IMG/VR virus record: IMGVR_UViG_2534682170_000012 | DNA: 28,108 nucleotides | Reading direction: 5' to 3' (one strand) | Origin: a virus | Taxonomy: Duplodnaviria > Heunggongvirae > Uroviricota > Caudoviricetes | The notes under the pieces: model-generated | Databases searched by the model: none | Told to the model about the DNA's origin: nothing | The model's input: the letters and a program-made list of their open reading frames with translations, nothing else | Shown here: piece by piece, positions 4,597 through 28,108 of the stretch | How the letters are laid out: the number at the start of each line of letters is the position of its first letter | Position numbering within the stretch: the first letter of the stretch is position 1 | Program-made: the position numbers and the translations under genes

Positions 4597-4986
4597 ATGA
4601 TTGACGCTCATGACTTCACAAGATGGGTGCGCACACAGGACACCCGTCTGGCTCCCGTTCTTCAGGGATTATTTGATCTCTACATCCGTAGTCGTGACAA
4701 CAGAGCACGCACTACAAAACCGGAGAATGCAGACACCCTTTATTTCACAGTAGACGACTGCTACCGCGTGGACTTAACACCACACGGGCTGGCGTTGCGC
4801 TGCCTGACACCGCATGGCGAATCACTGCTGGCGTATTACGACTCCCCGACCTCCGTATTTGCGGCAATGCTGGCGCATCACACTGCTGGCGGGTGTGCCT
4901 CGCTGAGTGAATACACCGCTGAATTTAACCGCCTTTCCACCCTCTTCTCGCAGGAGTGGCAGCGCGTGACGGGATACCAGCCATGA
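4597..4986 (+). CDS. Hypothetical early protein immediately upstream of, and coupled to, the replication gene
   Basis: 129 aa ORF; its stop overlaps the gpA start (ATGA at 4983-4986). Confidence 0.45.
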   Translation: MIDAHDFTRWVRTQDTRLAPVLQGLFDLYIRSRDNRARTTKPENADTLYFTVDDCYRVDLTPHGLALRCLTPHGESLLAYYDSPTSVFAAMLAHHTAGGCASLSEYTAEFNRLSTLFSQEWQRVTGYQP

Positions 4987-7748
4987 GTGAGTTTGCATGG
5001 AGCTGGAATGAACCACGGCCAGCCATTGATCCGGACAGATTTACGGAGCGCAGGCAGGAAACTGAAACCGAGCTGCAACGCGCCATCCGTTACTACCTTG
5101 AGGCGGACAAAAAGGCCCGTAAAGAACAGGAAGCGAAGGAGGAAGCCTTTTTCGCACAATCCACCGTGGGTAAAAAACTCATGGCATCCCTTGAGGAAGC
5201 CGGACAGCGTGAAAAGCTGGCACAAAGCATCATCAGCAAGCGTCAGGCAACAGAACAAGACCCGGTGGCCCGTGCTTTTGCCACACTGAAGGTGCTTCCC
5301 GTTTATCTGCGTGAACCTCTGAGCCGCCACCTCTCTTTCCTGCGCAAAAAACAGGAATCCGATCGTCAGAAAGGCAAAAAGAGCTGGCAGGCTGAACGCT
5401 ACGCGCGCGGAACCCTGCGCAAAATATTCGTACGTCTGGACCGCACCGACAGCCGTTGGCTGACACCGGGTTATCGGTCCCTTGCCGGACGTGAACGCCT
5501 GGACGATTTGCTTTCCCTGCCGCAACTCAACAAACACCAGATACAGACGCTGGCCACCATGACGGCGGCGATGTTCAGCAGCACCTTCGAAAAACTCTGC
5601 GATGGTTTTGGCGCGACCGATGGCGAGCTGACCATGGATGTAACGCTGAAGGCGTATCAGATGCTGGCCCGCATGGCGTTACACTTGCACGCCATGCCTC
5701 CGCATTATGACGCACTGACAACAGACAAAGACCGGAGGAACGAACCGGACACAGAACTGCTGCCGGGCGCAATCCTTCGCCTGACCTGTGCGGAATGGTG
5801 GAAACGCAAACTGTGGCTGTTACGTTGCGAGTGGAGAGAAGAACAACTCCGCGCCGCCTGTCTGGTTTCCAGAAAAACATCGCCCTATTTGAGCCAGGAC
5901 GCGTTAAGCGAGTTTCGCGCACAGCGCGAGAAAACACGCGATTTCCTGAAAAGTTTCATGCTGGAAAACGAAGACGGGTTCACGATTGATCTCGAGACGG
6001 TGTATTACGCGGGAGTAAGTAACCCGGTTCACCGTAAGGCAGAAATGATGGCCACCATGAAGGGGCTGGAACTTCTGGCCGAAGCCCGTGGCGACAAAGC
6101 GGTGTTTCTGACTGTCACCTGCCCGTCAAAATACCACGCCACAACAGAGAACGGTCATCCGAATCCCAAATGGAACGGGGCCACCATGCGCGACTCCAGC
6201 GATTACCTGGTTAACACGTTTTTTGCGGCGGTCCGCAAAAAACTGAACCGCGACGGTCTTCGCTGGTATGGCATCCGCACGGTGGAGCCTCACCATGACG
6301 GCACCGTGCACTGGCATATGATGGTCTTTGCTCATCCGGAAGAAATCGACAGCATCGTGGCCATCACCCGCGATATTGCCATTCAGGAAGACCGCCACGA
6401 GCTGGGCAATGATATTACTCCGCGCTTTAAGGCGGAGTATGTCGACGGCTCAAAAGGCACACCAACCAGCTATATCGCGACCTACATCGGAAAGAACCTG
6501 GACAGCCGCGCCGTGGATGGCATCGACCCGAAAACGGGCAAGCCACGCGTTGACCACGAAACCGGAAAATCAATGGCCGAGAGTGTGGAGCGCGCCATCG
6601 GCTGGGCGCGCCTTCATCGGGTCCGCCAGTTCCAGTTCTTTGGCATCCCCTCCCGTCAGGTGTGGCGTGAACTGCGCCGCCTTGCCAGCCAGATGGCACG
6701 CAACCCGGAAGGCCCGCAACGACTGAAAGATGACGCAATGGATGCGGTACTCGCTGCCGCCGATGCCGGGTGTTTTGCCACCTACATTGAAAAACAGGGC
6801 GGCGTACTTGTTCCACGCAAAGACTACCTGATTCGCACCGCCTACGACCTCGCAGATGAGCTGAATGATTACGGCGAACAGAGCGTACAGATTTACGGGA
6901 TCTGGTCACCACTCATCGGGGAATCCTCCCGTGTGTGCACGCATCCGGATAACTGGAAACTGGTAAGACGTAAACCGGAAACGGAAGACAGCGCCCGCGA
7001 AAATGGTTTTGACCTTCAGGGCGGCCCTGCCGCCCCTTGGACTCGTGGCAATAACTGTCCCCGTGTACAGGAAACGGACAACAACGGGACAGAACAGCCG
7101 GAAGAACGGCCAGCACCGTGGCCGCGGCTTCCTGAAGGCGTTGACGTGAATGAATGGATGCGCTCACTGAAACGGCACGAACGCCGGGCACTGATGCGTT
7201 CGCTGCGTGACAAACAGGCAAAAAACAGCAGTGATGAAATGCAGAACTGGACACAGAGCCGCAAACAGCCACAGCCTTTGCCTGATAACCACGAGTTACT
7301 CGCTAAAGAATGGCGGGAGTCTGCTGAATCTCTCGGCCTGCATATCGGTGAACAGCAGATGCAGCACCTGTTACGAGGCGGCAGTCTGTACGTTGGCGGC
7401 AGCATCATTGCACCGCAGGGATTTGAAATTGTACGCAAACAGGATACCCGCCCGGACAGCCGAATCACGCAGCTCTGGCAACGCCTGAGTCGTAATCACG
7501 GCGTAAGCAGCACGGAGATCCGCCATAACCCGGTCGCCAGCTATCTGGAACAACTAGAGGCATCAGACCCTGAAGCCGCCGCACGCCTGGCATCCACACT
7601 TCAGCAAGACCAGAACACCATGAAAACACCCGTTACCGTACTTTCTGACATGCTGCGCGCCATCCGCGACGCAGAGCACGCACAGAGAATCAGTGAAACC
7701 ACTAAACATGCTCGCAAAAAAATCAGTTTATTGCATCGAACACGATAG
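4983..7748 (+). CDS. A: Rolling-circle replication initiation endonuclease, P2 gpA family
   Basis: VEPHHDGTVHWHMMVF (HUH-type motif) and paired tyrosines YIATYIGKN (Tyr codons at 6471-6473 and 6483-6485) match the remembered P2 gpA active region. Start taken as the ATG at 4983 rather than the ORF-track start at 4956. Confidence 0.88.
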   Translation: MSEFAWSWNEPRPAIDPDRFTERRQETETELQRAIRYYLEADKKARKEQEAKEEAFFAQSTVGKKLMASLEEAGQREKLAQSIISKRQATEQDPVARAFATLKVLPVYLREPLSRHLSFLRKKQESDRQKGKKSWQAERYARGTLRKIFVRLDRTDSRWLTPGYRSLAGRERLDDLLSLPQLNKHQIQTLATMTAAMFSSTFEKLCDGFGATDGELTMDVTLKAYQMLARMALHLHAMPPHYDALTTDKDRRNEPDTELLPGAILRLTCAEWWKRKLWLLRCEWREEQLRAACLVSRKTSPYLSQDALSEFRAQREKTRDFLKSFMLENEDGFTIDLETVYYAGVSNPVHRKAEMMATMKGLELLAEARGDKAVFLTVTCPSKYHATTENGHPNPKWNGATMRDSSDYLVNTFFAAVRKKLNRDGLRWYGIRTVEPHHDGTVHWHMMVFAHPEEIDSIVAITRDIAIQEDRHELGNDITPRFKAEYVDGSKGTPTSYIATYIGKNLDSRAVDGIDPKTGKPRVDHETGKSMAESVERAIGWARLHRVRQFQFFGIPSRQVWRELRRLASQMARNPEGPQRLKDDAMDAVLAAADAGCFATYIEKQGGVLVPRKDYLIRTAYDLADELNDYGEQSVQIYGIWSPLIGESSRVCTHPDNWKLVRRKPETEDSARENGFDLQGGPAAPWTRGNNCPRVQETDNNGTEQPEERPAPWPRLPEGVDVNEWMRSLKRHERRALMRSLRDKQAKNSSDEMQNWTQSRKQPQPLPDNHELLAKEWRESAESLGLHIGEQQMQHLLRGGSLYVGGSIIAPQGFEIVRKQDTRPDSRITQLWQRLSRNHGVSSTEIRHNPVASYLEQLEASDPEAAARLASTLQQDQNTMKTPVTVLSDMLRAIRDAEHAQRISETTKHARKKISLLHRTR

Positions 7749-7793
7749 AAATATAGAGCTAAGGCCGCCCTAGGAATAAGGAGGCCTTGAAAA

Positions 7794-8603
7794 TCAACCT
7801 ATCTTCTTATGAAGTAAAATTAATTTCTGTATTAATTTGGAATGAAACATTGATATATCAGAAATTCTTATTTCATTAGGCGAGTCTATATGATTGGAAA
7901 CTTCTTCCTCCAAGGAGTCACAAATACTTTCTAGATTTTCAATATCTGCATTTAATTCTGGAAAACTATTAAACAAATATAATGAATCCCGTAACTCTCC
8001 TAGTTTTGGTAAAAGAGTATTACTGAATACACTAAGAAACTCCTCTTCTGATAATGCCATGGAGTTTTTAAAACTTTGCACAACATCGAATGCCAACCCA
8101 TTAATTTTAGGCATAATTACTTCTCTTACCCAATACCCTTCATTAATAGCTTCTTTACGTTCTTTTCTATGTTGAACACAAGGAATAACAAAGGATGAAA
8201 CTAAAGCAAATAAAGAGATGCCAATAGAAATCCACTCTGGACCATTTTCCGGAACCTTTACAATATTATATATATCATAGGAATTTGGAACATCTTTGAA
8301 ATAATTAGCAAATAAATCTTTTTTGTTATCCCTTGCCAGAGATAACTTATGAAAGGTGTCGTTTGCCTTTTCACAAAACATCAAGCCATCATTCGGGTTT
8401 CCGGATAACAAAAACGGTGATGATATACCACTAAGTCCTGAATCGGAAATATAAAAAGGCGTGTTTGGATAAAGTGATTCATTACATTCAATGTTTTCTT
8501 TATTGGAAAAATCTGTCACAGAGCAAGCTGCGGGGAATATAAAAAAAATGACAGACAGCGCTGTCATTTTGATTTGAAAAATATTTTTAAAAGAAGGGAA
8601 CAT
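7794..8603 (-). CDS. Cargo gene 3: membrane protein with signal-peptide/lipobox-like N-terminus and one internal TM helix
   Basis: 269 aa, AT-rich. N-terminal hydrophobic segment ends in PAAC; internal hydrophobic helix WISIGISLFALVSSFVIPCV. Start 8603 overlaps gene 2; an alternative ATG is at 8565-8567. Confidence 0.5.
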   Translation of the reverse strand: MFPSFKNIFQIKMTALSVIFFIFPAACSVTDFSNKENIECNESLYPNTPFYISDSGLSGISSPFLLSGNPNDGLMFCEKANDTFHKLSLARDNKKDLFANYFKDVPNSYDIYNIVKVPENGPEWISIGISLFALVSSFVIPCVQHRKERKEAINEGYWVREVIMPKINGLAFDVVQSFKNSMALSEEEFLSVFSNTLLPKLGELRDSLYLFNSFPELNADIENLESICDSLEEEVSNHIDSPNEIRISDISMFHSKLIQKLILLHKKIG

Positions 8604-8931
8604 TTTTATGTAAGCCTCTCCTTACAGCTCTATCTAATTCAGAAAGCATACCTTCTTTATATTCACGACCATCAAGTACAGTGCGACTATAAAATTCGCT
8701 AGGCGAAGAAAATTTCGGCAAAACCGTTTCAAGCATACCTAGAAAGTATGAGCTTGATACAACAATTCCCTTGGGGATCAATAGATATAATCTATCATTA
8801 CTGGTTGTGCAAAATTTCCCTATATTAAAGTAATCATAGGCCTGGCGCCCATTAGAACGTCCAGCAAAAAGTTTCTTGTTACTATCTTTTACTAACTTAT
8901 TGAAATCTATGGTGATGTCAGCCATTTTCAT
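8587..8931 (-). CDS. Cargo gene 2: small STAS-like protein (anti-sigma-factor-antagonist-like)
   Basis: 114 aa; Ser-rich VVSSSYFLG (8737-8763) resembles the phospho-acceptor motif of SpoIIAA/RsbV-type STAS domains, and the size matches. GAGGA RBS; starts 10 nt after the gene 1 stop. Confidence 0.45.
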   Translation of the reverse strand: MKMADITIDFNKLVKDSNKKLFAGRSNGRQAYDYFNIGKFCTTSNDRLYLLIPKGIVVSSSYFLGMLETVLPKFSSPSEFYSRTVLDGREYKEGMLSELDRAVRRGLHKNVPFF

Positions 8932-8941
8932 GTACCTGTCC

Positions 8942-10321
8942 TCAAGTTCGCTGGGTGGCGTTTTCTGGTAGAGGAAAACGAATATTGATCATAACTCCAG
9001 GAAATCGAGCATCCTTCATACGCTTAAGATAGTTGCGATCCGGTTCAGATTCAAGCCCTACATCATTAAAAGGGTAAGTAAAAATGTCACTTTCCTCGTC
9101 ATTAACCAACCTTTGCTTTAATTTATATGATCCATCAAAGTTAATATGAGTACTACCAGATATTAAAGTCATTTTTATCCCACCTTTAATATCTCTTCCC
9201 ATTTTTTTAAGATTATCATGCATATCTTGAAATAACTTCAATAATTCAATTGTTCCGGTGCCAGAACTGTCAGTTTCTTTCTCGTTTTTACAACTCACCC
9301 GCCCTTGCAAGGCCGCTACTGTTGTTAATCCTTCCTTAAACATACCCTTTTTCTTAATATGCTTATTTATGTATGGATTAACTTGTTGACTTAATGAAAA
9401 ATGATCCTCAGGTAAATTATCAAAAGTTTCGCTGATAGTTTTCCCAAAATTGAAAACAGCCAACTCACATATGGGGTTTCGTACGTTATTATTAACAAAA
9501 CCTCTCAAATACCAGCGTGGGCGTTGCTCTAACCCACAATGCCGCTCCGCATTATCAAGGAGTTCCCCCATGCAGGAAGTTAAATGCTTTTCTGCCTCAT
9601 GTACAAGTTTTAAATTATGATCATTTAAGCATTCGTTTATGTATGCGGTAAATTTTTCAGCAGTGACATTTTTTCTGTCATGGGCAAAGGCAGAAGCATT
9701 CTCCTTTCCGATACTATCAGCAGAGAAGATTCGTTTCTTCGGATTCGCTTTTTTCGATGCTTCAGTAGAGTCCAGAACTTTACCTGGTGCAGCATTACTA
9801 ATCTCTTTTACAAGCCCGACATCCCTGATAATTTCAAGATACTGTTCATCTTTAGGGTAGATACCATTAATCTGAATCATCGTATCTTTGAAATTTATAT
9901 TACTTTGCCTTGCTGCTGTAAGAGCAACACCTAATAGACACTCAAGACCAAGACAGTGTTTTTTGTTTTTCTTGTAATCAAAAATATATGATTTCCATTT
10001 ACCTCTTGCAATTAATTTTGTGGCTGCACTAATAAATAGCAGAGATTTCTCTGGATTGTCATATAAGTCAAAATATTTAGGTATTAATATCTTCTCTGCG
10101 TCACGACGAAGAATTGATGAGTCATACTCTTTTATAATCGATATATTTTCAATGAACGTAGCGACTTGGTTTTGGACAGGAGTTGTTTCATCGGAAAAAC
10201 GAAGACTACCATTTTTCTCTTGCGCAGGCTTTTTTTTCTTAGCTCTCTCAACGCTACGAAGAAATCGCAACCATCCACGTAAAAAGGTTCTTTTAGAATC
10301 TTCTTTATTGATTTTTTTCAT
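8942..10321 (-). CDS. Cargo gene 1: large protein with GHKL/anti-sigma-kinase-like ATPase motifs
   Basis: ORF-track frame 8942-10417 begins at a TTG; the first ATG is at 10319-10321 (MKKINKED...). ELLDNAERHCG (9539-9565) resembles the N-box of SpoIIAB/RsbW-type Bergerat ATPases; Gly-rich DSSGTGT (9239-9271) lies downstream. Strongly AT-rich. Confidence 0.5.
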   Translation of the reverse strand: MKKINKEDSKRTFLRGWLRFLRSVERAKKKKPAQEKNGSLRFSDETTPVQNQVATFIENISIIKEYDSSILRRDAEKILIPKYFDLYDNPEKSLLFISAATKLIARGKWKSYIFDYKKNKKHCLGLECLLGVALTAARQSNINFKDTMIQINGIYPKDEQYLEIIRDVGLVKEISNAAPGKVLDSTEASKKANPKKRIFSADSIGKENASAFAHDRKNVTAEKFTAYINECLNDHNLKLVHEAEKHLTSCMGELLDNAERHCGLEQRPRWYLRGFVNNNVRNPICELAVFNFGKTISETFDNLPEDHFSLSQQVNPYINKHIKKKGMFKEGLTTVAALQGRVSCKNEKETDSSGTGTIELLKLFQDMHDNLKKMGRDIKGGIKMTLISGSTHINFDGSYKLKQRLVNDEESDIFTYPFNDVGLESEPDRNYLKRMKDARFPGVMINIRFPLPENATQRT

Positions 10322-10400
10322 TTCCAAATGTTCCTGCAAAGTTAACGTAGCCCACAAGGCGCTAAGTATACTTTCTGCTATATTTTTTTCACTATACAAA

Positions 10401-17684: not shown

Positions 17685-18073
17685 GCAACACATTTAAATT
17701 CAGCAGCCGGAGCGAAAAGAATTTGCAGGGCGTAAATCCTGATCTGGTGAAAGTGACCCGACGGGCACTGGAAATTTCGGAAGTGGATTTTGGTATCACC
17801 GAAGGGTTGCGCAGCCGTTACCGCCAGAAGCAACTTGTGGCCACAGGTAAGAGCCAGACCATGAACAGCCGCCACCTTACGGGACATGCCGTGGATGTTG
17901 TGGCTTATATCGGCAGCCAGGTGTCATGGGAATGGCCGCTGTACGAAAAAATCGCAGCAGCATTCAGACAGGCCAGCCGGGAGCTGAATATTCCGGTGGA
18001 ATGGGGCGGCGACTGGAAGACCCTGAAAGACGGACCGCATTTTCAGTTACCACACGGAGTCTATCCGGCATGA
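17681..18073 (+). CDS. Endolysin, peptidase M15-like (L-alanyl-D-glutamate peptidase type)
   Basis: 130 aa; SRHLTGHAVDV and WGGDW motifs are typical of zinc peptidase M15 phage endolysins. Lysis-cassette position. Confidence 0.75.
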   Translation: MSNTFKFSSRSEKNLQGVNPDLVKVTRRALEISEVDFGITEGLRSRYRQKQLVATGKSQTMNSRHLTGHAVDVVAYIGSQVSWEWPLYEKIAAAFRQASRELNIPVEWGGDWKTLKDGPHFQLPHGVYPA

Positions 18074-18477
18074 AGCTCTGGCCCACGCTGGGTGTCGCTT
18101 TCCTTCTGATTGCCGCATGGGGAACATCCATGCGTCTGTCATGGTCGCTGGGCCGGGAGAACGCCAGAAACGAAGCGCAGGCCAGCACCCTGAAACGTAC
18201 CGCCGACACCCTGAATATCATTAGCGCCGGGGTACAGGATATGCAGCAGGTGCTGGCGCAACTCCGCGTGGAAAATCAGCAACGCAATCAGGACGGAGAG
18301 GCAAGACGTGAACAGCTACGCAACGATATTGCAAAAGATGAATGCGCCCACGCTTTGCCTGACGCTCGTTTTACTGACAGGCTGCGCAGGCACGCAGAAC
18401 GCGCCACGGCCAGCGCCGTCAGTCCGGCTTATACCGCAGACGCTGACCATACCGGTAACGCCTCCCCCCTTCCCTGA
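18070..18477 (+). CDS. Spanin inner-membrane subunit (LysB/Rz-like)
   Basis: ATG overlaps the endolysin stop; N-terminal TM LWPTLGVAFLLIAAWG followed by a charged coiled-coil-like region. The ORF-track start at 17926 is rejected. Confidence 0.6.
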   Translation: MKLWPTLGVAFLLIAAWGTSMRLSWSLGRENARNEAQASTLKRTADTLNIISAGVQDMQQVLAQLRVENQQRNQDGEARREQLRNDIAKDECAHALPDARFTDRLRRHAERATASAVSPAYTADADHTGNASPLP

Positions 18478-18628
18478 CACTCCCACATGGGGAAATCTCG
18501 GTATATGGGGCGACCGCCTTCTGGATGCACTGGAAACCTGTAACGCGGATAAACGGGCCATTGAATTACTGGAACAGCGCAGGCTGCAACGACTGAACAA
18601 CGAGGACAACAACCATGCTGAAAACTGA
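18338..18628 (+). CDS. Spanin outer-membrane lipoprotein subunit (LysC/Rz1-like), overlapping the i-spanin in another frame
   Basis: Internal Met followed by lipobox LLTGCAG; Pro-rich mature part; overlapping arrangement as for P2 lysB/lysC. Confidence 0.55.
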   Translation: MNAPTLCLTLVLLTGCAGTQNAPRPAPSVRLIPQTLTIPVTPPPFPDTPTWGNLGIWGDRLLDALETCNADKRAIELLEQRRLQRLNNEDNNHAEN

Positions 18629-19082
18629 TTCCCTGCGTGAAGCCATGACCCGTTCATGCCGATGGTGTCAGGCCAACCCGGAAAAATTCACCATTTTCGT
18701 GGAGAGCGGCAACATTGAAACGACCGGAGAAACGCCCTCGTTTGTTTACCGCTATCAGATGGTGATGTTTGTCATGGATTACGCCGGGGAGCTGGACGAC
18801 CTCACGCTGCCGCTACTGGCGTGGTTATCCGAAAATCAGCCACAGTTGTTGCTCAATCCGGAGCGTAATCAGGACATCAAATTTTCCGCCGTTATCAATG
18901 ACGATGACAGCGCCGATCTCCTGTTTACGCTCCCCCTGCGGGAACGCGTTCGCATTACGCGCAGCAGTCAGGGTACACCGCAGGCAGAACACCTGCCAGA
19001 GCCAAAACCCCGTCTGCCCTCTTCCGAAGGCGACTGGTCGCATGTATTCCAGGATGTGACGTGGGGTGAAAGCGATGGATAA
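18615..19082 (+). CDS. R: Tail completion protein, P2 gpR family
   Basis: MLKTDSLR...VPVLAWL-like segment (LPLLAWLSENQP) matches gpR. Confidence 0.8.
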   Translation: MLKTDSLREAMTRSCRWCQANPEKFTIFVESGNIETTGETPSFVYRYQMVMFVMDYAGELDDLTLPLLAWLSENQPQLLLNPERNQDIKFSAVINDDDSADLLFTLPLRERVRITRSSQGTPQAEHLPEPKPRLPSSEGDWSHVFQDVTWGESDG

Positions 19083-19710
19083 GGCATTCACCCGTGTGGA
19101 TGAAACCTTTGAGGCCATCCGCGACAGCCTGAATCAGCAGGTCATCAATAACATCGCCAGAAAGCTGGCACAGGATTTACGCCGCGCCCAGCAGGCACGT
19201 ATCCGGTCACAGAAAGCGCCGGACGGGACCGCGTGGACACCTCGCAGACGCCGCGTAACCCGGATACAGGAGCGCATTCGCTTTATCTGGAATAACGAAG
19301 CACGCACGCTGAAAAACTGGCATCACGACACGGGGAAATACGGGCGAACCATTACCGGGTGGGATGAGGATAAAAACAATATCCGCACGTTTTACCGGGA
19401 TGACATCGACCGTTTTCTGGAAATACGCACCCGGCGCATCAACCAGGACAGCACAAAGCGCGTCCCCATGTTCGTAAAACTGCGCACCGCCCGCTACCTG
19501 AAAGCCCGTGCAGATGCTTCCGGTGTGACGGTGGGTTACAGCGGCGTGGCCGCACGTATTGCACGCGTTCATCAGTTCGGTGAGCGCGATCAGGTTGCGC
19601 CGGGCATTTTCACCGATTACCCGGTACGTGAGCTGCTGGGTATCAGCCAGGCAGATGAGCGCCTGATTTATAACACGGTGCTGGGTCGGATTGCGGAGGC
19701 TGTACGGTGA
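19066..19710 (+). CDS. S: Tail completion / virion morphogenesis protein, P2 gpS position
   Basis: 214 aa ORF between R and V; assigned by position and size. Start could be the ATG at 19075. Confidence 0.65.
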   Translation: MKAMDKAFTRVDETFEAIRDSLNQQVINNIARKLAQDLRRAQQARIRSQKAPDGTAWTPRRRRVTRIQERIRFIWNNEARTLKNWHHDTGKYGRTITGWDEDKNNIRTFYRDDIDRFLEIRTRRINQDSTKRVPMFVKLRTARYLKARADASGVTVGYSGVAARIARVHQFGERDQVAPGIFTDYPVRELLGISQADERLIYNTVLGRIAEAVR

Positions 19711-20288
19711 GCGCAGAACTCATGCGACTGCTGAGCAATATCATCCGTACCGGGATCATCTCTGAAGTTGATGAGAAGTCCTGGCGCGTGCGCGTTCGCA
19801 GCGGCGGACTGGAAACAGGCTGGCTGCGCTGGAACACCACGCGCGCGGGAGCCTTCAATGTGTGGCTGCCGCCATCACCCGGCGAACAGGTGGTAATTGC
19901 CTGCATTGGCGGCAACCCGGAAACCGCCATGATAATTGGCAGCCTGTGGAGTGATGCCAGTCCGCCCCCCGGCAAAAGCCTGAAAGAAATCGTGGTCAGC
20001 GCGCCGGACGGCGCGGTGTTCCGCTACGACGCGGACGCAGGCGCGCTGAGCGCCAGCGGCATGAAAACAGCCACCCTGCAGGCATCCGTCAGCGTGACAC
20101 TGGACGCGCCCGTCGTGGAATGCACAGACCTTCTGAGAACAGCGACGCTTGACGTCACAAAAGGGGGAAAGATGAGCGGCAATATCACGCACAGCGGCGG
20201 CGATTTCACCTCAAACGGCATCACAGTGCATACGCATAAACACGGTGGCGTGAAAGGCGGCAGCGATTCGACAGGAGGCCCGCAGTGA
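19707..20288 (+). CDS. V: Baseplate spike/assembly protein, P2 gpV family
   Basis: IRTGII, GEQV, PDGAV and HTHKH segments match gpV; GTG start overlaps the S stop. Confidence 0.88.
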   Translation: MSAELMRLLSNIIRTGIISEVDEKSWRVRVRSGGLETGWLRWNTTRAGAFNVWLPPSPGEQVVIACIGGNPETAMIIGSLWSDASPPPGKSLKEIVVSAPDGAVFRYDADAGALSASGMKTATLQASVSVTLDAPVVECTDLLRTATLDVTKGGKMSGNITHSGGDFTSNGITVHTHKHGGVKGGSDSTGGPQ

Positions 20289-20635
20289 CAACCCGCTACA
20301 CAGGAATGAATCCGGACGGGACGGGAAACCTGAACGATATGGAGCACCTGAAACAGTCAGTCAGGGACATCCTGACCACCCCGCTGGCAAGCCGGGTTAT
20401 GCGACGGGAATATGGCAGCCTTGTGCCTGATTTGATTGACGAACCCATGAATAACACCACGCGTCTGCAATGCATGAGTGCTGCCGTGATTGCGCTGACA
20501 CGATGGGAACCCCGCATTGCCCTGGATGCCATCGACGTTGTCTGGAAGGCAGGAGGCCGCGCCGGGGTGACGCTGTCGGGCACTGTCATGCAGACCATGC
20601 AGAATGTTGAATTAACCATCACGCTAAGGGAGTAA
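20285..20635 (+). CDS. W: Baseplate protein, P2 gpW family
   Basis: MTTRYTGMN...SRVMRREYGSL matches gpW (MTARYLGMN...SRVMRRDYGSL). Confidence 0.88.
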   Translation: MTTRYTGMNPDGTGNLNDMEHLKQSVRDILTTPLASRVMRREYGSLVPDLIDEPMNNTTRLQCMSAAVIALTRWEPRIALDAIDVVWKAGGRAGVTLSGTVMQTMQNVELTITLRE

Positions 20636-20638
20636 ATC

Positions 20639-21535
20639 ATGCCCGCCGTTGACCTTTCACAGTTACCGGACCCCGCCATCATCGCGGAGCCTGACTTTGA
20701 GGCAATTCTGGCTGACACAAAGGCCATGATGATTGCGGCTTATCCCGCCGAACAGCGTGAAGCCGTCTCCGCCGCGCTGGAGCTGGAATCGGAACCCCTG
20801 AACGTTATCGCCCAGACAACAGCGTTTCGTGAAATGCTGTTACGCCAGCGGGTCAATGAGGGTGCACGCGCCTGCATGTTAAGCCACAGCGCCGGGACAG
20901 ACCTGGACAACCTCGCGGGCAATATGAACACAAAGCGCCTGGTTATCACTCCGGCAACGAATACCACCGACGCGGTGATGGAAAGCGACACCTCGCTGAG
21001 ACTGCGGGCGCAACGGGCGTACGACGGCCTGAGTGTTGCTGGCCCGTCAGGTGCATACGAGTATTTTGCCCGCAGCGCCAGCGGTCTGGTGCGTGATGCG
21101 CGGGCTATCAGTCCGTCTCCGGCAAATGTGACGGTTTCCATCCTGTCCACTGAAGGCGACGGCACAGCAACGGAGGCGTTGCTTAATACCGTTCGCGCCG
21201 TTCTGAATGCAGAGGATACCCGCCCGGTGGCCGACCGCCTGACCGTACAGAGTGCCAGAATCGTGACATGGCGGCTGAATGCAAAACTGTACTTTTACCC
21301 CGGCCCGGAATCCGAACCTATTCTGGCCGCGGCGGAATCGTCGTTCAGCAAGTGGCTGGCTGAGCAGGGGCTTATCGGTCAGGACGTGGCGTTATCCGCC
21401 ATTGCTGCCGCACTGCATGTGCACGGTGTGCAACGCGTGGAGATAATCGAACCCACACAGAATATGGCCATCAGCGACATACAGGCGGCGCGCTGTGAGT
21501 CGTTCACCATCAGCGAAGGTGGGCGCAATGAGTAA
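20639..21535 (+). CDS. J: Baseplate protein, P2 gpJ family
   Basis: 298 aa; LESEPL, RPVADR(L)TVQSA, YPGPESEPI and GVQRVE segments match gpJ. Confidence 0.88.
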   Translation: MPAVDLSQLPDPAIIAEPDFEAILADTKAMMIAAYPAEQREAVSAALELESEPLNVIAQTTAFREMLLRQRVNEGARACMLSHSAGTDLDNLAGNMNTKRLVITPATNTTDAVMESDTSLRLRAQRAYDGLSVAGPSGAYEYFARSASGLVRDARAISPSPANVTVSILSTEGDGTATEALLNTVRAVLNAEDTRPVADRLTVQSARIVTWRLNAKLYFYPGPESEPILAAAESSFSKWLAEQGLIGQDVALSAIAAALHVHGVQRVEIIEPTQNMAISDIQAARCESFTISEGGRNE

Positions 21536-22058
21536 TTCGCTGTTACCACCATCAGCCAGCAATTTCATGCGTTGCGCCGAAGCTGTCGGAGCGCGCATTA
21601 CAAACATCCCGGTAGACCTCAACACGCTGTGGTCACCGGATACCTGCCCGGTGCATCTGCTGCCTTATCTCGCCTGGGCATTTTCCGTTGACCGCTGGGA
21701 TCGCAACTGGCCGGAAGAGACAAAGCGACAGGTTATTCGTGATGCATGGCTGATACACCGACACAAAGGGACCATCAGCGCACTGCGCCGGGCCATTGAG
21801 CCGCTGGGATACCTCATTCGCGTGTCTGAGTGGTGGGAGTTCGGCGGAGAACCGGGAACATTTACCGTTGAAGTCGGCACGCTGGACAGTGGCGTGACGG
21901 AGGAAATGTATCTGGAAATGGAGCGGTTGATTGCTGATGCCCGCCCGGTCAGCCGCCACATGACAGGGCTGAATATCATTCAGGAAATTCCGGGGGATAT
22001 TTTCGCAGCGGCGGCAACTTATGACGGTGAAGTTATTACCATTTATCCAGGCGATTAA
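21528..22058 (+). CDS. I: Baseplate/tail protein, P2 gpI family
   Basis: Start taken at MSNSLLPP, overlapping the J stop; PDTCP..LLP.LAWAFSVDRWD and HKGTI segments match gpI. Confidence 0.85.
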   Translation: MSNSLLPPSASNFMRCAEAVGARITNIPVDLNTLWSPDTCPVHLLPYLAWAFSVDRWDRNWPEETKRQVIRDAWLIHRHKGTISALRRAIEPLGYLIRVSEWWEFGGEPGTFTVEVGTLDSGVTEEMYLEMERLIADARPVSRHMTGLNIIQEIPGDIFAAAATYDGEVITIYPGD

Positions 22059-22060
22059 GC

Positions 22061-24226
22061 ATGAGTACCACAACACGAAAATTTAAAACCGTTATCACCG
22101 ATACGGGTGCAAAAAAATTAGCTCAGGCAGCCGCGCCAGATGGTAAGCCTGTCCGCCTGACTCATATGGCCGTGGGCGACGGTGGCGGCGCGTTGCCCAC
22201 ACCAGACAGTAAGCAGACCCGTCTGGTGCATGAGGTGTGGCGACACACTGTTAATCGCGTCATCCTGGACGCAACACATCAGAACCGCATTATTGCGGAG
22301 CTGGTTATTCCTCCTGAAACGGGCGGATTCTGGATCCGGGAAATTGGTGTATTTGATGAGCACGGCGATTTAATCGCGGTGGGCAATACTGCCGAAAGTT
22401 ACAAACCAACCGTTGCCGAAGGGTCCGGACGTGCACAAACATTTCGCACTATTCTGACCGTATCCAGCACTGCCACCGTGGCGCTTACCGTGGATAACAC
22501 CATGGTGATGGCCACAGTGGATTACGTGGATGACAAACTGAAAGAGCATGAACAGTCACGACGTCACCCGGACGCCTCGCTGACCGCAAAAGGCTTTGTT
22601 CAACTCAGTAGCGCCACTAACAGCGATTCTGAAACGCTGGCTGCAACGCCGAAAGCGGTTAAGGCCGCGTATGACCTGGCTAACGGAAAATATACCGCTC
22701 AGGACGCCACGACGGCACGAAAAGGGATAGTCCAGCTCAGCAGTGCAACCAACAGCACGTCTGAAACGCTGGCAGCGACACCAAAAGCGGTTAAGGCGGT
22801 AATGGATGAAACGAACAAGAAAGCCCCATTAAACAGCCCGGCACTGACCGGAACGCCAACAACACCAACTGCACAACAGGGAACGAATAATACCCAAATC
22901 GCAAGCACGGCTTTTGTTATGGCCGCGATTGCCGCACTTGTAGACTCTTCACCTGACGCACTGAACACGCTGAACGAGCTGGCGGCGGCGCTGGGCAACG
23001 ACCCGAATTTTGCGACCACCATGACTAACGCGCTTGCGGGTAAGCAACCGAAAGATGCCACCCTGACGGCGCTGGCCGGGCTTGCTACTGCGGCAGACAG
23101 GTTTCCGTATTTTACGGGGAATGATGTTGCCAGTCTGGCAACCCTGACAGAAGTCGGGCGGGATATTCTTGCGAAATCGACCGTTGCCGCTGTTATCGAA
23201 TACCTCGGTTTACAGGAAACGGTAAACAGGGCTGGTAACGCCGTGCAAAAAAATGGCGATACCTTGTCCGGTGGGCTTACTTTTGAAAATGACTCAATCC
23301 TTGCCTGGATTCGAAATACTGACTGGGCGAAGATTGGATTTAAAAATGATGCCGATGGTGACACTGATTCATACATGTGGTTTGAAACAGGCGACAACGG
23401 CAATGAATATTTCAAATGGAGAAGCAAACAAAGCACCACAACAAAAGACCTGATGAATCTTAAATGGGATGCTTTGTCTGTCCTTGTTAAAGCCCTTTTC
23501 AGCAGTGAAGTAAAAATATCGACAGTCAATGCACTAAGGATATTTAATTCATCTTTTGGTGCTATTTTTCGCCGTTCTGAAGAATGTCTTCATATCATCC
23601 CTACCCGAGAAAATGAGGGGGAAAATGGCGATATAGGGCCACTACGCCCCTTTACGCTTAATCTCAGAACTGGTCGCATAACTATGGGGCATGGTCTGGA
23701 TGTTACAGGAGATATATTTGCAAACCGTTTTGCAATTAACAGTAGTACCGGCATGTGGATTCATATGCGTGACCAGAATGTTATTTTGGGACGCAATGCG
23801 GTATCCACCGATGGTGCACAGGCATTACTTCGTCAGGACCATGCTGATCGCAAATTTATGATTGGTGGGCTGGGAAATAAGCAATTTGGCATCTACATGA
23901 TTAATAACTCAAGGACAGCTAATGGCACCGATGGTCAGGCGTACATGGATAATAACGGGAACTGGCTTTGCGGCTCGCAAGTTATTCCCGGCAACTATGG
24001 CAATTTTGATTCCAGATATGTGAAAGATGTTCGACTTGGTTCACAGAAATATTATGGAGTGAACAACTGGCAAACATGGAATTTCCAGTGCCCGTCAGGT
24101 CATGTATTGTCTGGTATTAATGTTCAGGATACAGGGTCCAACTCTGCCGATAATATAGCGGGCGTTTATTGCAGACCCGTTCAAAAGTATATAAATGGCA
24201 CCTGGTATAATATAGCGAGCGTTTAA
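22061..24226 (+). CDS. H: Tail fibre protein, P2 gpH family, with variable C-terminal receptor-binding segment
   Basis: The N-terminal two-thirds is near-identical in long stretches to remembered P2 gpH ([23 protein letters not shown] repeats, [30 protein letters not shown]). The C-terminal third diverges and ends [11 protein letters not shown]. Confidence 0.9.
23193..23218. repeat. gix/hix-like recombination site, left, inside the tail-fibre gene at the constant/variable junction
   Basis: TTATCGAATACCTCGGTTTACAGGAA matches the reverse complement of the right site at 24 of 26 positions. Confidence 0.7.
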
Positions 24227-24227
24227 T

Positions 24228-24755
24228 ATGATGCACTTAAAGAACATAAAAGCGGGTAATGCTAAAACACTGGAACAGTATGAGTTAACAAAGAAGCACG
24301 GAGTCATCTGGCTTTACTCTGAGGACGAAAAAAACTGGTATGAGGAAGTGAAAAACTTTCAGCCAGACACCATAAAGATTGTTTACGATAAAAATCAGAT
24401 TATAGTCGCTATCACCAGAGATGCTTCAACGCTTAATCCTGAAGGTTTTAGCGTTGTTGAGGTTCCTGATATTACCTCCAACCGACGTGCTGACGACTCA
24501 GGTAAATGGATGTTTAAGGATGGTGCTGTGGTTAAACGGATTTATACGACAGATGAGCAGCAACAACAGGCAGAATCACAAAAGGCCGCGTTACTTTCCG
24601 AAGCAGAAAGCGTTATTCAGCCACTGGAACGCGCCGTCAGGCTGAATATGGCGACGGATGAGGAACGCGCACGACTGGAGTCATGGGAACGCTACAGTGT
24701 TCTGGTCAGCCGTGTGGATACGGCAAATCCTGAATGGCCACAAAAGCCTGAATAA
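24228..24755 (+). CDS. G: Tail fibre assembly chaperone (P2 gpG / Tfa family)
   Basis: 175 aa directly after H; N-terminal region matches the inverted paralogue at 24784-25284. Confidence 0.85.
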
Positions 24756-24760
24756 AAATT

Positions 24761-24780
24761 AAGGCCCGCTATCGGGCCTT
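24761..24780. terminator. Bidirectional hairpin terminator between the convergent fibre-chaperone genes
   Basis: Perfect inverted repeat AAGGCCCG-ctat-CGGGCCTT flanked by A/T-rich runs. Confidence 0.5.
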
Positions 24781-24783
24781 GTC

Positions 24784-25284
24784 TCATTCAGGTTGTTCGG
24801 GAAACGTTACTGGCAGGCTGGAAGTGTCTGTAGATTCGACTTTCTGCGCAAAGAGCATCCACTCTGTTAATTTTTGTTTATTCTCGTCGGAAATGATGCC
24901 CAGCCGTAGCTGTGAGTCCCATAGCTGGGTTTTATCCCTGACGAGCTGTAGCAGGCTTTGCTTTTCATTTTCCGCCTGCTGCCTCTGCTCTTCCTCGGTA
25001 TAAGTTCGCTTTACCACTACGCCATCTTTGAACATCCATTTACCCGAAATGTCAGCACGGCGATTTGCTGTAATATCAGGTAATTCAACGACGCTTGCGC
25101 CTTCCGGATTAATTGCTGAAACATCCTTTTCAATACAAATAATAACGCCGTTATGGCCATAGACCATTTTCAAAGTGTCTGGCTGGAAATTCTTTTGTTC
25201 CTCATACCAGTTTTTTCCATCATCTGAATAAAGCCATTTGATGTTAAATTGCTTTGTTAGCTGGTATTGCTCTTTCGTTCTCAA
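24784..25284 (-). CDS. Alternative tail fibre assembly chaperone (Tfa'), inverted orientation
   Basis: 166 aa; clearly paralogous to G ([31 protein letters not shown]). Confidence 0.8.
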
Positions 25285-25339
25285 AATCGGTGGAGCTGCA
25301 TGACAAAGTCATCGGGCATTATCTGAACATAAAACACTA

Positions 25340-26311
25340 TCAATAAGTTGGAGTCATTACCCCCGCGTTATACCACGTCCCATTAATGCAATACTGAATT
25401 GGCCTTGCCTGAGTTGTATCAATTAATTCATCACGGTTTCCGTTAACTGAACCCGTAACGACATAACCTGACCTGTCAGACCAGCCGGGGCCTTTCCATG
25501 TCTGAACAGATGACAGACCGCCAAGGCGAATACCTGTAATAAACCTTGAGTTACATTCTGCCTGCGTATATGCACCAACATCCCCCGCAGAGGGTTTGCG
25601 TGTTGTGGTGTAAAACTCTGACCAGTTAGCTTCAAAGCCATAACCATCACGCGCTGAACGATAAAAAATACCGCCGTTCCTGTAATTCACGCGGAACTGT
25701 ACAGCAGGGCAACTCCCCGCATTCATATTGAAGTGGAGGATTAATGTCGATGCACCACTGATATCTGCATCATAAACACCGCTATTCCAGTTCCAGCCAA
25801 CAGCTTTATCATTTGCGACCCTGCGTCCTGTTTGCCCTAAAGCAAATGCAGGCTGCTGGTTTTTCGTGTTGTAGTCTCGTCGCCAGCCAGGAGCGTAAGC
25901 ATCACCATGATTAATATAAGTGAATTGAGCGTTAGTAATTCCGCCACCGCTGGACGTGCTCGGCGTAGTAACGCGTATGGTCATTGCGCCGCGAGTGCCA
26001 ATAACTTCCACCACAGCACCTGCAAGACAAATATTTCCGCAACCTGTATCTGTAATAACCTTATTATTTGCATAAGCCCATGAGCCTTTGCACATCCAGT
26101 AAGGATGGTTAAATGCCCCCTGACTCTCCAGCCACGAAATAAATTGCGCAGTTGTCCAGACCTGACTATCGCCACCAATATTCAGCCATGCGCTATATGC
26201 GCGGCAGGCACCAATGTTTTTGGTGAAGGTATCTTTTCCCGGAATATCTGCGCCGTTCTGGTTTTTCTGTAATGCGCCAGAAGCCTGATTTACCGTTTCC
26301 TGTAAACCGAG
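25340..26311 (-). CDS. Alternative tail-fibre C-terminal segment, start-less; would be fused in frame to H after inversion
   Basis: Hand translation of the minus strand from the right gix site gives LGLQETVN, then a novel segment ending [15 protein letters not shown]. The codon just upstream is a stop, so it has no own start. The ORF-track ATG at 26095 is internal. Confidence 0.7.
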
Positions 26312-26322
26312 GTTTTAGATAA
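26297..26322. repeat. gix/hix-like recombination site, right
   Basis: TTCCTGTAAACCGAGGTTTTAGATAA; one mismatch to the Mu gix sequence as I remember it; inverted relative to the left site. Confidence 0.7.
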
Positions 26323-26376
26323 TGGCGGTTTCTGGCCTGCATGGCATGATTTGTGCTTTTGGACGGGAGATTCAGC

Positions 26377-26703
26377 GTGCTGATTGGCTATGTAAGGGTA
26401 TCAACAAATGACCAGAATACAGACCTGCAACGAAACGCTCTTGTTTGTGCAGGATGTGAACAAATATTTGAAGATAAATTAAGCGGAATAAGGACAGGCC
26501 GACCTGGATTAAAACGTGCTTTAAAGCGCCTTCAAAAAGGTGACGCACTGGTTGTCTGGAAACTGGACTGACTGGGTCACTGTATGCGGCATCTTGTCGT
26601 GCTGGTGGTGGAAGCCTGGAAGAAGTATCGGGTGTTGCTGAACCGTGTTAATACAACAACTGCACCGGATATTGAATGGCCAACAGGACCCATTATCGAA
26701 TAG
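26377..26703 (+). pseudogene. Serine DNA invertase (Gin/Hin/Pin/Cin family) pseudogene: premature stop after about 65 codons, decayed downstream part, C-terminal DNA-binding region missing
   Basis: GTG start with GGGAGA RBS; N-terminus LIGYVRVSTNDQNTDLQRNAL...LVVWKLD matches the invertase catalytic domain (Ser in VRVSTNDQ). In-frame TGA at 26569-26571 where the family has Arg. The same frame then reads [14 protein letters not shown], a degenerate version of LGRSMKHLISLVGE, and ends at TAG 26701-26703. Confidence 0.7.
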
Positions 26704-26714
26704 TGCATTACGAA

Positions 26715-26747
26715 CTGCAGGATATTATATGGGATAATATTCTGCAG
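26715..26747. terminator. Near-perfect 14-bp-arm hairpin (CTGCAGGATATTAT-atggg-ATAATATTCTGCAG) followed by a T-rich run
   Basis: Read directly; lies between the invertase remnant and the 3' end of the diguanylate cyclase gene. Confidence 0.4.
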
Positions 26748-26776
26748 TTTATTGGGGCTGTATTTTAAAAAGGTGT

Positions 26777-28108
26777 TTATTTTGAGTGAGTTATCACCTT
26801 GTTTTTTCCGGTTCTTTTGGCTTGATATAACGCTTTATCGGCATTGACTAACATTTCAGATGGACTGAGATTATTCTCTTTTGAAGTAAAGCAACCAATA
26901 CTGACAGTTATTTTCTCAGGTCCATGCGATAATAATTTTTCCGAGCATTGCTCTTCAATGTTTTTTCTGATTCGCTCTGCAATTGATAGCAAGAGCTTTT
27001 GAGTATTACCTTTAATGATAATACCGAACTCCTCACCGCCTAAGCGCCCTAATATATCCTCTTTCCTGATGGATTTTTTTATTATTCTGGTAACCATTAC
27101 TATGACTTGATCACCCATATGATGCCCCCATTTGTCATTGATGCTTTTGAAATTGTCAATATCTAACATTATTACTGAGAAATCATGGTGTTTTGATATA
27201 TTCTTCAATGAGTCAATAAAGTATCTTCTATTGTATGTATTCGTTAGTGGATCATGAATTGCCATATGATTAGCATGATTTAATTTCCTGAAAACATAAT
27301 ACATGAGTGTTGAAATGATATAAATCATTGATATCAATTCAAGAAATTTTGTCATGTACCATGCAGGATGGGATTTATCAATAAAATACAATAAAATTAG
27401 ATTATTGCATACTGACACTATACTAATAAGTATTATACACAACCATATTTTTGAGTAATTACGTATGCTGATGCATGAGCTGATAAGTAATACAAGCCAA
27501 AATACTGATATTATTTTGGTGTACACGATATTCCACGTCGGCAAATGACGATTCAGCGAGTATTGTATAATATTAAGACTATATTTTATATTGTCACTGC
27601 TTAGATTTTTTGCTACAAACGGAGTAATAAAAAGAATTAATATTGACAAAACAACAATTATTATGTTTCTTTTATCTTCTAAAACACTTTTGTTTTTAAC
27701 ATTGGTGGAATAAACAGCCAGAAAGATTATAGATATAAAGCTGAACTGACGGAATAGATAATATATTGCGATATCATTTGATTTCTGATAGATTGTAGAT
27801 AAATCGTTACCTAACGGAGATAAAGAAATAATAGCCACTTCTAATAAATAATACGTGTTGCTCAAAAACGCGAATGAAAGAATTAAGAGATAACTTTGTC
27901 TCTGATTAGAAACATAGTAAAGCAATAGAAAAATAAAAATCATCAGGTTTATGAAAAAAAGCCCAATAATGAAAACACTATAACTTATTTGTGTTGTTTG
28001 TGTTATGTATATTCCATTATTTGCATGCAGTAACAAAAATATAATAGAGATGCATGAAAATAAAAAGATGAAGATTTTTATTTTTATAGGTACCTGGTTG
28101 ATAATCAT
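26777..28108 (-). CDS. Membrane-bound diguanylate cyclase: multi-pass N-terminal membrane domain plus GGDEF domain (YcdT/DgcT-like architecture)
   Basis: C-terminal GGDEF domain with HDPLTNTYNRRYF, RLGGEEFGIII (GGEEF active-site motif) and DKALYQAKRTGKNKV. N-terminal half is highly hydrophobic and AT-rich. The ORF start codon is the last 3 nt of the window, so the true start may lie beyond it. Confidence 0.8.
   Translation of the reverse strand: MIINQVPIKIKIFIFLFSCISIIFLLLHANNGIYITQTTQISYSVFIIGLFFINLMIFIFLLLYYVSNQRQSYLLILSFAFLSNTYYLLEVAIISLSPLGNDLSTIYQKSNDIAIYYLFRQFSFISIIFLAVYSTNVKNKSVLEDKRNIIIVVLSILILFITPFVAKNLSSDNIKYSLNIIQYSLNRHLPTWNIVYTKIISVFWLVLLISSCISIRNYSKIWLCIILISIVSVCNNLILLYFIDKSHPAWYMTKFLELISMIYIISTLMYYVFRKLNHANHMAIHDPLTNTYNRRYFIDSLKNISKHHDFSVIMLDIDNFKSINDKWGHHMGDQVIVMVTRIIKKSIRKEDILGRLGGEEFGIIIKGNTQKLLLSIAERIRKNIEEQCSEKLLSHGPEKITVSIGCFTSKENNLSPSEMLVNADKALYQAKRTGKNKVITHSK

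Follow-up and report, generated by a model that had tools for sequence, protein, structure and literature searches.

A pin'::'tfa fossil beside an invertible tail-fibre segment that appears to keep flipping in Escherichia coli prophages

The switches Mu G/Gin, P1 C/Cin, e14 P/Pin and Hin share a common design, in which 26-bp crossover sites in inverted orientation, with a TC/GA centre, are placed at the boundary between the constant and the variable part of the fibre. In the switches of the Mu, P1 and e14 type, two fibre C-termini lie head to head with their own chaperones, and the invertase gene is found just outside the right site. The invertases of the Din family are able to complement each other. 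Moreover, truncated pin genes are textbook material in cryptic prophages, pinH of K-12 being an example of an invertase remnant in a cryptic E. coli prophage; PGAP labels such remnants as "recombinase family protein", either partial or with an internal stop. A fibre inversion module is also carried by P88-like (Xuanwuvirus) and P2-like prophages inserted at yecA-leuZ, and in the P88-like prophages a 195-aa invertase is followed by U, T, E, tube, sheath, D and ogr. Regarding the chromosomal site that will be of interest here, the diguanylate cyclase gene dgcX has been described at the lambda attB, flanked by lambdoid prophage DNA (Richter et al. 2014, PMC4287979); the word "invertase" is absent from the main text of that paper. 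The enhancer of Mu is located within gin, and the hin enhancer is about 100 bp from a hix site (PMC3798978).

The stretch of DNA analysed here, called the window, is 28,108 nucleotides long (IMG/VR record IMGVR_UViG_2534682170_000012). It has the fibre inversion module in common with the P88-like and P2-like prophages at yecA-leuZ, and its sites, its two sets of fibre ends and chaperones and the position of its invertase gene are those of the Mu, P1 and e14 switches. Unlike the Gin, Cin, Pin and Hin systems, however, the invertase of the window is a 64-codon stub that would be unable to act in cis, and where the P88-like prophages continue with the rest of the invertase and the genes from U to ogr, the window has the end of a tfa gene ('tfa) and a cyclase gene instead. 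Like the invertase remnants of other cryptic prophages, the stub is a truncated pin in a decayed lambdoid prophage and has been annotated either as a pseudogene or as a 64-aa CDS. It differs from them in being a specific pin'::'tfa fusion, linked to a dgcX-type cyclase and flanked by a flipping switch. As in the published dgcX locus, this GGDEF cyclase stands directly beside lambdoid remnants, adjoining ybhB-bioA.

Taken as a whole, we consider it highly probable that the open reading frame at 26377-26703 is a non-functional pin'::'tfa fossil belonging to a remnant at the lambda attachment site, and that it lies beside an orphan switch flipped in trans; that the contig bringing them together is chimeric is somewhat more likely than not. 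The fossil retains codons 1-77 of a serine invertase of the Din family, with a nonsense mutation at the catalytic Arg65 and the change R68H, joined at 26608/26609 by illegitimate recombination to the last 31 codons of a lambdoid tfa. Both 26-bp sites are intact, and a Fis enhancer in the 5' part of the stub would survive as well. The fibre segment would then be an orphan switch that any Din-family invertase present in the cell could flip, and the path that placed the stub behind the prophage switch would be a repeat of about 1.05 kb present at both loci, exact but for two SNPs.

The two crossover sites of the window are inverted, have identical inner half-sites and a TC centre, and bracket the alternative fibre C-termini with their chaperones. 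The features of this region are:

23193..23218, plus strand: left 26-bp crossover site, TTATCGAATACC-TC-GGTTTACAGGAA, centre at 23205-23206, inside the fibre gene H
26297..26322, minus strand: right 26-bp crossover site, TTATCTAAAACC-TC-GGTTTACAGGAA on the minus strand, centre at 26309-26310
23219..26296: invertible segment of about 3.06-3.08 kb, flipped in the sibling assembly L014 with 2 differences across the segment
22061..24755, plus strand: H (721 aa) and chaperone tfa (175 aa), both intact, the currently expressed fibre orientation
24784..25274, minus strand: tfa', chaperone gene of the alternative fibre, without its first 11 codons and start
25275..25362: IS1 terminal fragment (scar) of 88 bp, between the alternative fibre gene and tfa'
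25340..26296, minus strand: alternative fibre C-terminal cassette, intact save for the last residues, where SI* has become VMTPTY* from the IS1 end
26395..26470: putative Fis-dependent recombinational enhancer, in the 5' part of pin', placed by homology

The segment thus contains the variable C-terminus of H and tfa on the plus strand, and tfa' and the alternative fibre C-terminus on the minus strand. The IS1 scar is 100% continuous with the full IS1 present in L011, L016, L017, L018 and L044, and it is joined to codon 12 of tfa' through a few bases of microhomology. Since the C-terminus of the alternative fibre is altered and its chaperone is truncated, flipping probably gives a defective state, which would be confined to this lineage. 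Only two contigs of the whole public collection contain the 166-aa product of the truncated tfa' in exactly this form. As for the enhancer, it would be kept in the stub, considering that the first 191 nt are 97.4% identical to Mu gin and that the Mu and Hin enhancers are placed in this portion of the gene (PMC3798978, citing Kahmann 1985). Its span follows the position of the hin enhancer.

The initial annotation had regarded the fibre switch as probably frozen because of the dead invertase gene next to it. This is not supported by the orientations found in sequenced genomes, which point to a segment that flips in nature. L014 has the segment of the window in the opposite orientation, with breakpoints falling precisely on the TC centre of the 26-bp sites. 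Furthermore, genomes that share one dead allele differ in orientation. Strains 2018-02-2CC and PSS-16 (L007 and L031) have the same lambda-site prophage and the same doubly mutated stub, with the segment inverted and flanks 99.9% identical. A second pair, strain C2 (CP010117.1) and BPVW01000001.1 (L047 and L048), has a stub identical to the 327 nt of the window and again differs by the inversion. The flanks of these same-allele pairs are 99.6-99.9% identical. Counted over all fusion alleles in 5,426 genomes, 128 have the alternative-fibre end next to the stub and 210 the other end. Both orientations therefore exist, with breakpoints at the site centres, and since the same dead allele occurs in both, the inversions would postdate the inactivation of the invertase.

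The accompanying expectation, that without an invertase acting in trans there would be no inversion, fits these data: it evidently happens, because genomes with the same stub are found in both orientations. The simplest cause of the flips would be trans-acting Din-family invertases from other prophages. RecA-mediated inversion across the identical core of about 30 bp is a conceivable other cause. A separate observation concerns the trp-proximal copy of L006 (ST131 strain 5506), where the right site, at 4768-4793, has two substitutions in the inner half-site (GGTTTACGAGAA) and the alternative fibre is different; the switch of L006 may really be locked.

The frame of the stub is opened by a GTG at 26377 (VLIGYVRVSTNDQNTDLQRNALVCAGCEQIFEDKLSGIRTGRPGLKRALKRLQKGDALVVWKLD). 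Its product begins VLIGYVRVSTNDQ and ends LVVWKLD before a TGA at 26569-26571, and past this stop the same frame continues up to a TAG at 26701-26703. The start is 55 bp past the right crossover site, where P2/P88-like prophages have their invertase. A base-level alignment to pinE of e14, to a full-length P2-like pin and to a tfa fragment of strain 042 divided the reading frame into three pieces, a to c, which are given here with the invertase stub and the neighbouring gene:

26377..26571, plus strand: pin', invertase codons 1-64, Gin-like, plus the in-frame TGA at codon 65
26377-26567: piece a, Gin-like, identical at 181/191 nt to P2-like pin, 97.4% to Mu gin and at 137/191 nt to pinE
26568-26608: piece b, pinE-like
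26572..26608, plus strand: residual invertase codons 66-77, like pinE of e14, with R68H and S69C
26609..26703, plus strand: piece c, 'tfa, the last 31 codons and TAG of a lambdoid tail-fibre assembly gene
26777..28108, minus strand: MASE4-GGDEF diguanylate cyclase of 443 aa, probably dgcX, neighbour of the pin'::'tfa fossil

The 64 residues before the TGA are those of a Gin-like invertase. They are identical to residues 1-64 of Gin (PDB 4m6f) at 61 of 64 positions, with the changes T38I, D41G and T57A, they also match residues 1-64 of the Gin structure 3uj3, and in Pfam they correspond to positions 2-73 of the 145 of the Resolvase domain (PF00239, E 3.5e-18). The N-terminal catalytic part of a serine recombinase is therefore present, including the YVRVST motif with Ser9 (Gin numbering), as the first half of the domain only. 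A complete catalytic domain, for which we looked for Arg65 and Arg68 (R68 and R71 of gamma-delta resolvase) and the oligomerisation helix E, is lacking: codon 65 is TGA in the stub and CGA (Arg65) in pinE, codon 68 encodes His, and the invertase sequence stops at codon 77. In addition, the ORF of the window gave no match to HTH_7 (PF02796), which the Pfam scan placed at residues 138-181 of a full-length relative, and no other invertase is encoded anywhere in the window. A functional invertase in cis is found, on the other hand, in L014 and in the O111:H8 strain 8E.

These results agree with the initial annotation in its description of a dead invertase gene with a well-conserved serine-recombinase N-terminus, a TGA after LVVWKLD and no C-terminal HTH region. 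The alignment to Gin and Pin, which it had proposed as a check, showed a Gin-like N-terminal part and a short following part that is pinE-like. Since the stub has only half a catalytic domain and neither helix E nor an HTH domain, it is predicted to be incapable of DNA recombination. Automatic annotation has treated the span in two ways. PGAP gives a 64-aa CDS (WP_001378636.1) in strain YSP8-1 and, in strain 2018-02-2CC, a 327-nt pseudogene described as "recombinase family protein, internal stop".

The stop codon itself was also considered as a possible artefact. That the TGA is a sequencing error was rejected, since the window's exact 327 nt, TGA included, recur in several independent complete genomes. 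More broadly, it is hardly conceivable that the TGA is erroneous or read through so that a functional invertase is made: nothing speaks for this but the intact-looking N-terminus, and readthrough could not restore function because beyond codon 77 the frame encodes the C-terminus of tfa and no invertase.

Turning to the part from the stop onwards, piece b (26568-26608) is identical to pinE at 37 of 41 nt versus 21 of 41 for P2-like pin. The four differences from pinE are CGA to TGA (the stop at Arg65), a silent GGG to GGT, CGC to CAC (R68H) and AGT to TGT (S69C). Piece c belongs to another gene. It matches positions 104-130 of the 131 of Pfam Caudo_TAP (E 5.8e-11, 43 bits against a cutoff of 22) and is identical at 94 of 95 nt to the tfa fragment of strain 042, whose upstream sequence is unrelated to the window; it is a 3' fragment without its own start and not a full-length Caudo_TAP protein. 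Between pieces b and c, where ..GCTGGTGG at 26608 is joined to TGGAAGCC.. at 26609, there is no usable homology, which argues for an illegitimate join. That pin' and 'tfa share one frame would be by chance.

A second change of closest relative, from Gin-like to pinE-like, is located at 26567/26568, beside the stop. It falls at the end of GTTGTCTGGAAACTGGA, which is nearly identical among the aligned invertase genes (one mismatch in pinE). An intact parent with a Gin-like N-terminal and a pinE-like C-terminal part was not found in 5,426 complete genomes, where the best full-coverage match of an in-silico 306-nt query was 81%; hence this change may be a second, older junction.

The asymmetry between an almost unmutated N-terminal part and a diverged downstream part had been attributed to a recent recombination junction near the stop and not to uniform decay. 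A junction does exist, but the fusion junction lies 37 nt beyond the stop codon and it is not recent. Likewise, the apparent decay after LVVLVVE is, from 26609 on, the 3' end of tfa, as given by the Caudo_TAP match and the strain 042 fragment. The tail of the ORF being a different gene, arguments about decay that are based on its alignment mislead.

The age of the fusion can be considered from its distribution. Of 5,426 complete E. coli genomes, 538 contain the 83 bp that span both breakpoints (26530-26612), with a coverage of 80% or more and an identity of 95-100%. The fusion occupies at least two chromosomal loci, one beside the MASE4-GGDEF cyclase adjoining ybhB-bioA, on the bio side of the lambda attachment site, and the other in a trp-proximal lambdoid prophage, ST131 included. 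Its copies have also acquired different additional lesions, namely W61* in FDAARGOS_1264, and Q29* together with TGG at codon 65 in 2018-02-2CC and PSS-16. Fusion copies were also seen on small records labelled as plasmids in the search of the phage and plasmid collections, where the invertases matched by the query 26556-26612 were only pinE-like (91%) or others (84% or less). The number of genomes, the loci and the differing lesions, taken together, indicate an old and drifting fossil, so that the pin'::'tfa fusion is best described, from sequence comparison, as an old and common E. coli prophage fossil; the idea of a recent junction does not hold.

The next question is to which prophage the stub belongs. 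The P2/P88-like prophage that O111:H8 strain 8E carries in the yecA-leuZ interval is colinear with positions 1-26567 of the window, beginning with the integrase and extending to H and the chaperone G (tfa), at 96.6-99.6% identity, and only the cargo at 7708-10400 differs. The P2-like matches end at window position 26567 in all 31 complete genomes with a query coverage of at least 80%, 8E among them. Beyond this position, 8E continues with the invertase up to 195 aa and then U, T (tape measure), E, tube, sheath, D and ogr. The right end of the window, in turn, has its closest relatives at the lambda attachment site. Positions 25363-28108 differ by one base from the remnant at this site in YSP8-1, and positions 25275-28108 are 100% identical to the remnants L011, L016, L017 and L018, in which the alternative fibre gene borders on a complete IS1, with lambdoid head genes beyond it. 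The complete genome L044 has the same arrangement by gene order, with an identical stub. The cyclase probably corresponds to dgcX, since it fits the published description of a prophage-linked cargo gene at the lambda attachment site. Its exact protein occurs in 2,770 index blocks, amid very diverse states of prophage decay. On this comparison, the stub is assigned to the lambdoid remnant with the cyclase beside ybhB-bioA, and not to the P2/P88-like prophage of 1-26567.

This assignment bears on the model in which the prophage's own invertase recently gained the stop and lost its 3' half in place, leaving the switch locked. The ORF is indeed at the position of the invertase in P2/P88-like prophages and there is no other invertase in the window, as that model would expect. 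The relatives, however, have a full-length 195-aa invertase at the equivalent position (that of phage P88 matches nt 1-191 of the stub at 95.8%). At least from 26327 rightwards, and plausibly from 25275, the sequence is of the lambda-attachment-site remnant type, and those remnants, 100% identical, have no P2-like prophage. Moreover, the fusion is common to the 538 genomes, same-allele genomes occur in both orientations, and in the related assembly L014 a full-length invertase, the very finding that had been named as refuting the idea, lies next to the same segment in its flipped state. Decay in place is therefore very unlikely, and the reading of the stub as a fossil of the lambda-site remnant is followed below.

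Some further features of these prophages were observed. To the right of the invertase in 8E (L004/L005) and in L014, a block of sheath, tube, E, T and U is transcribed towards the invertase, that is, inverted with respect to the canonical P2 order (H G FI FII E T U D), and gpD keeps the orientation of H. The cargo region of the window (7708-10400) lies between a P2 gpA-like replication gene and the portal gene, and replaces the parM/stbB cargo of O111:H8 8E. It contains a three-gene operon on the minus strand, encoding 269, 114 and 459 aa (7794-8603, 8587-8931 and 8942-10321). The same trio was found in P2-like prophages with four different integrases, and the operon at 7794-10321 gave no PADLOC or Pfam match. 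Its position is the known P2 hotspot for anti-phage cargo, which makes the trio a candidate for an uncharacterised defence system.

How a fossil of the lambda-site remnant came to stand behind the switch of a P2-like prophage depends on the nature of the joint. Sibling assemblies that bear on it were located by exact-protein look-ups:

AQBN01000036.1 (GCA_000358045.2): 100% identical to window 18000-28108
AQBH01000034.1 (GCA_000357925.2): arrangement as in the window, continuing to uvrB
AQBO01000040.1 (L014; GCA_000358065.2): segment with the IS1 scar inverted, followed by the 195-aa invertase and tail genes
AQBP01000042.1 (L015; GCA_000358085.2): ogr...U-pin195-site-alternative fibre-IS1

The two loci have about 1.05 kb in common (25275-26326), comprising the IS1 end, the alternative fibre cassette and the site, and across this repeat 25276 and 25583 are the only positions at which L014 departs from the window. 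The prophage would be located at yecA, given that the identical integrase is beside yecA in 10/10 contexts among the matches listed. This integrase occurs in 23,594 index blocks. The K-12 order is ascending in both halves of the window, tyrP-yecA(-)-[int...H] and [pin'...]-ybhB(-)-bioA(-)-bioB(+), and the joint links about 1.99 Mb to about 0.81 Mb of the K-12 map, 1.2 Mb apart, in direct orientation. A chromosomal inversion was thus rejected as the origin of the joint, as both halves run in the same K-12 direction, and a 1.2-Mb duplication, a translocation or a split chromosome would be needed to produce it.

Considering these data, we lean, with moderate confidence, towards a chimeric join in a draft assembly in which the repeat was collapsed. 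The siblings present a swapped pair of paths, tfa'-repeat-pin' in L012 and L013 and IS1-repeat-pin195 in L015, as expected from mis-resolving a two-copy repeat. The consensus of L015 is a mosaic whose markers are of the remnant type as far as 26517 and of the P2 type from 26545 on. At the IS1 joint, the only differences are 24 nt deleted from L012 and a SNP within the microhomology, where the window has the IS1-type C and L014 the tfa'-type T. Should the contig be chimeric, the prophage would keep its own full-length invertase in cis, and the question of a frozen switch would be moot for the source strain. Against a chimera, AQBN and AQBH are independent assemblies that give the same join, and AQBH extends far on both sides, which one would seldom expect of a misjoin arising at random.

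A real joint is possible and we put it forward only tentatively. The P2-like prophage and the lambda-site remnant would have recombined within the repeat of about 1 kb, either by homologous recombination or through Pin at the 26-bp site. The prophage would thereby be left without its own invertase and without U, T, E, tube, sheath, D and ogr, and flipping would rely on another prophage or on the full-length invertase, which would now be at the reciprocal joint. That two assemblies have the same join, in one case on a 213-kb contig reaching uvrB, is consistent with this, and so are a candidate for the reciprocal product in L015 (IS1-alternative fibre-site-pin195-U...ogr) and the exchange interval 25584-26326, which contains the crossover site. 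However, the direct orientation implies one of the large rearrangements named above, the arrangement of the window is present in 0 of 5,426 complete genomes, and the oddities of the consensus at the IS1 joint fit a collapsed repeat. The crossover in L015, at 26518-26544, also lies in another interval than that of the window, so the two are not simple reciprocal products. Campbell-type integration of a phage into the remnant via the repeat was rejected, since L015 (51 kb) runs about 40 kb beyond ogr, which is more than a permuted prophage would reach before the next repeat.

Under the chimeric reading that we favour, the contig probably joins two loci, and a prophage devoid of tail genes or of an invertase is not to be inferred from the source contig without its reads. 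A broader possibility, which we consider improbable at present, is that orphan switches are kept in play by the invertases of co-resident prophages and that the joint of the window is maybe a real Pin-driven rearrangement. If this were true, one prophage would control the tail-fibre (or tailocin-like) specificity of another, and the orphan site with its enhancer at the lambda attachment site would be a target of Pin exchange with a P2-like prophage 1.2 Mb away. The fusion itself is real but ordinary and known in kind, the stub being already flagged as a pseudogene or fragment in RefSeq, and it carries little weight for wider biology. What it does indicate for tail-fibre switches is that a pseudogene adjoining a switch does not mean a locked switch, as the population data show flipping.
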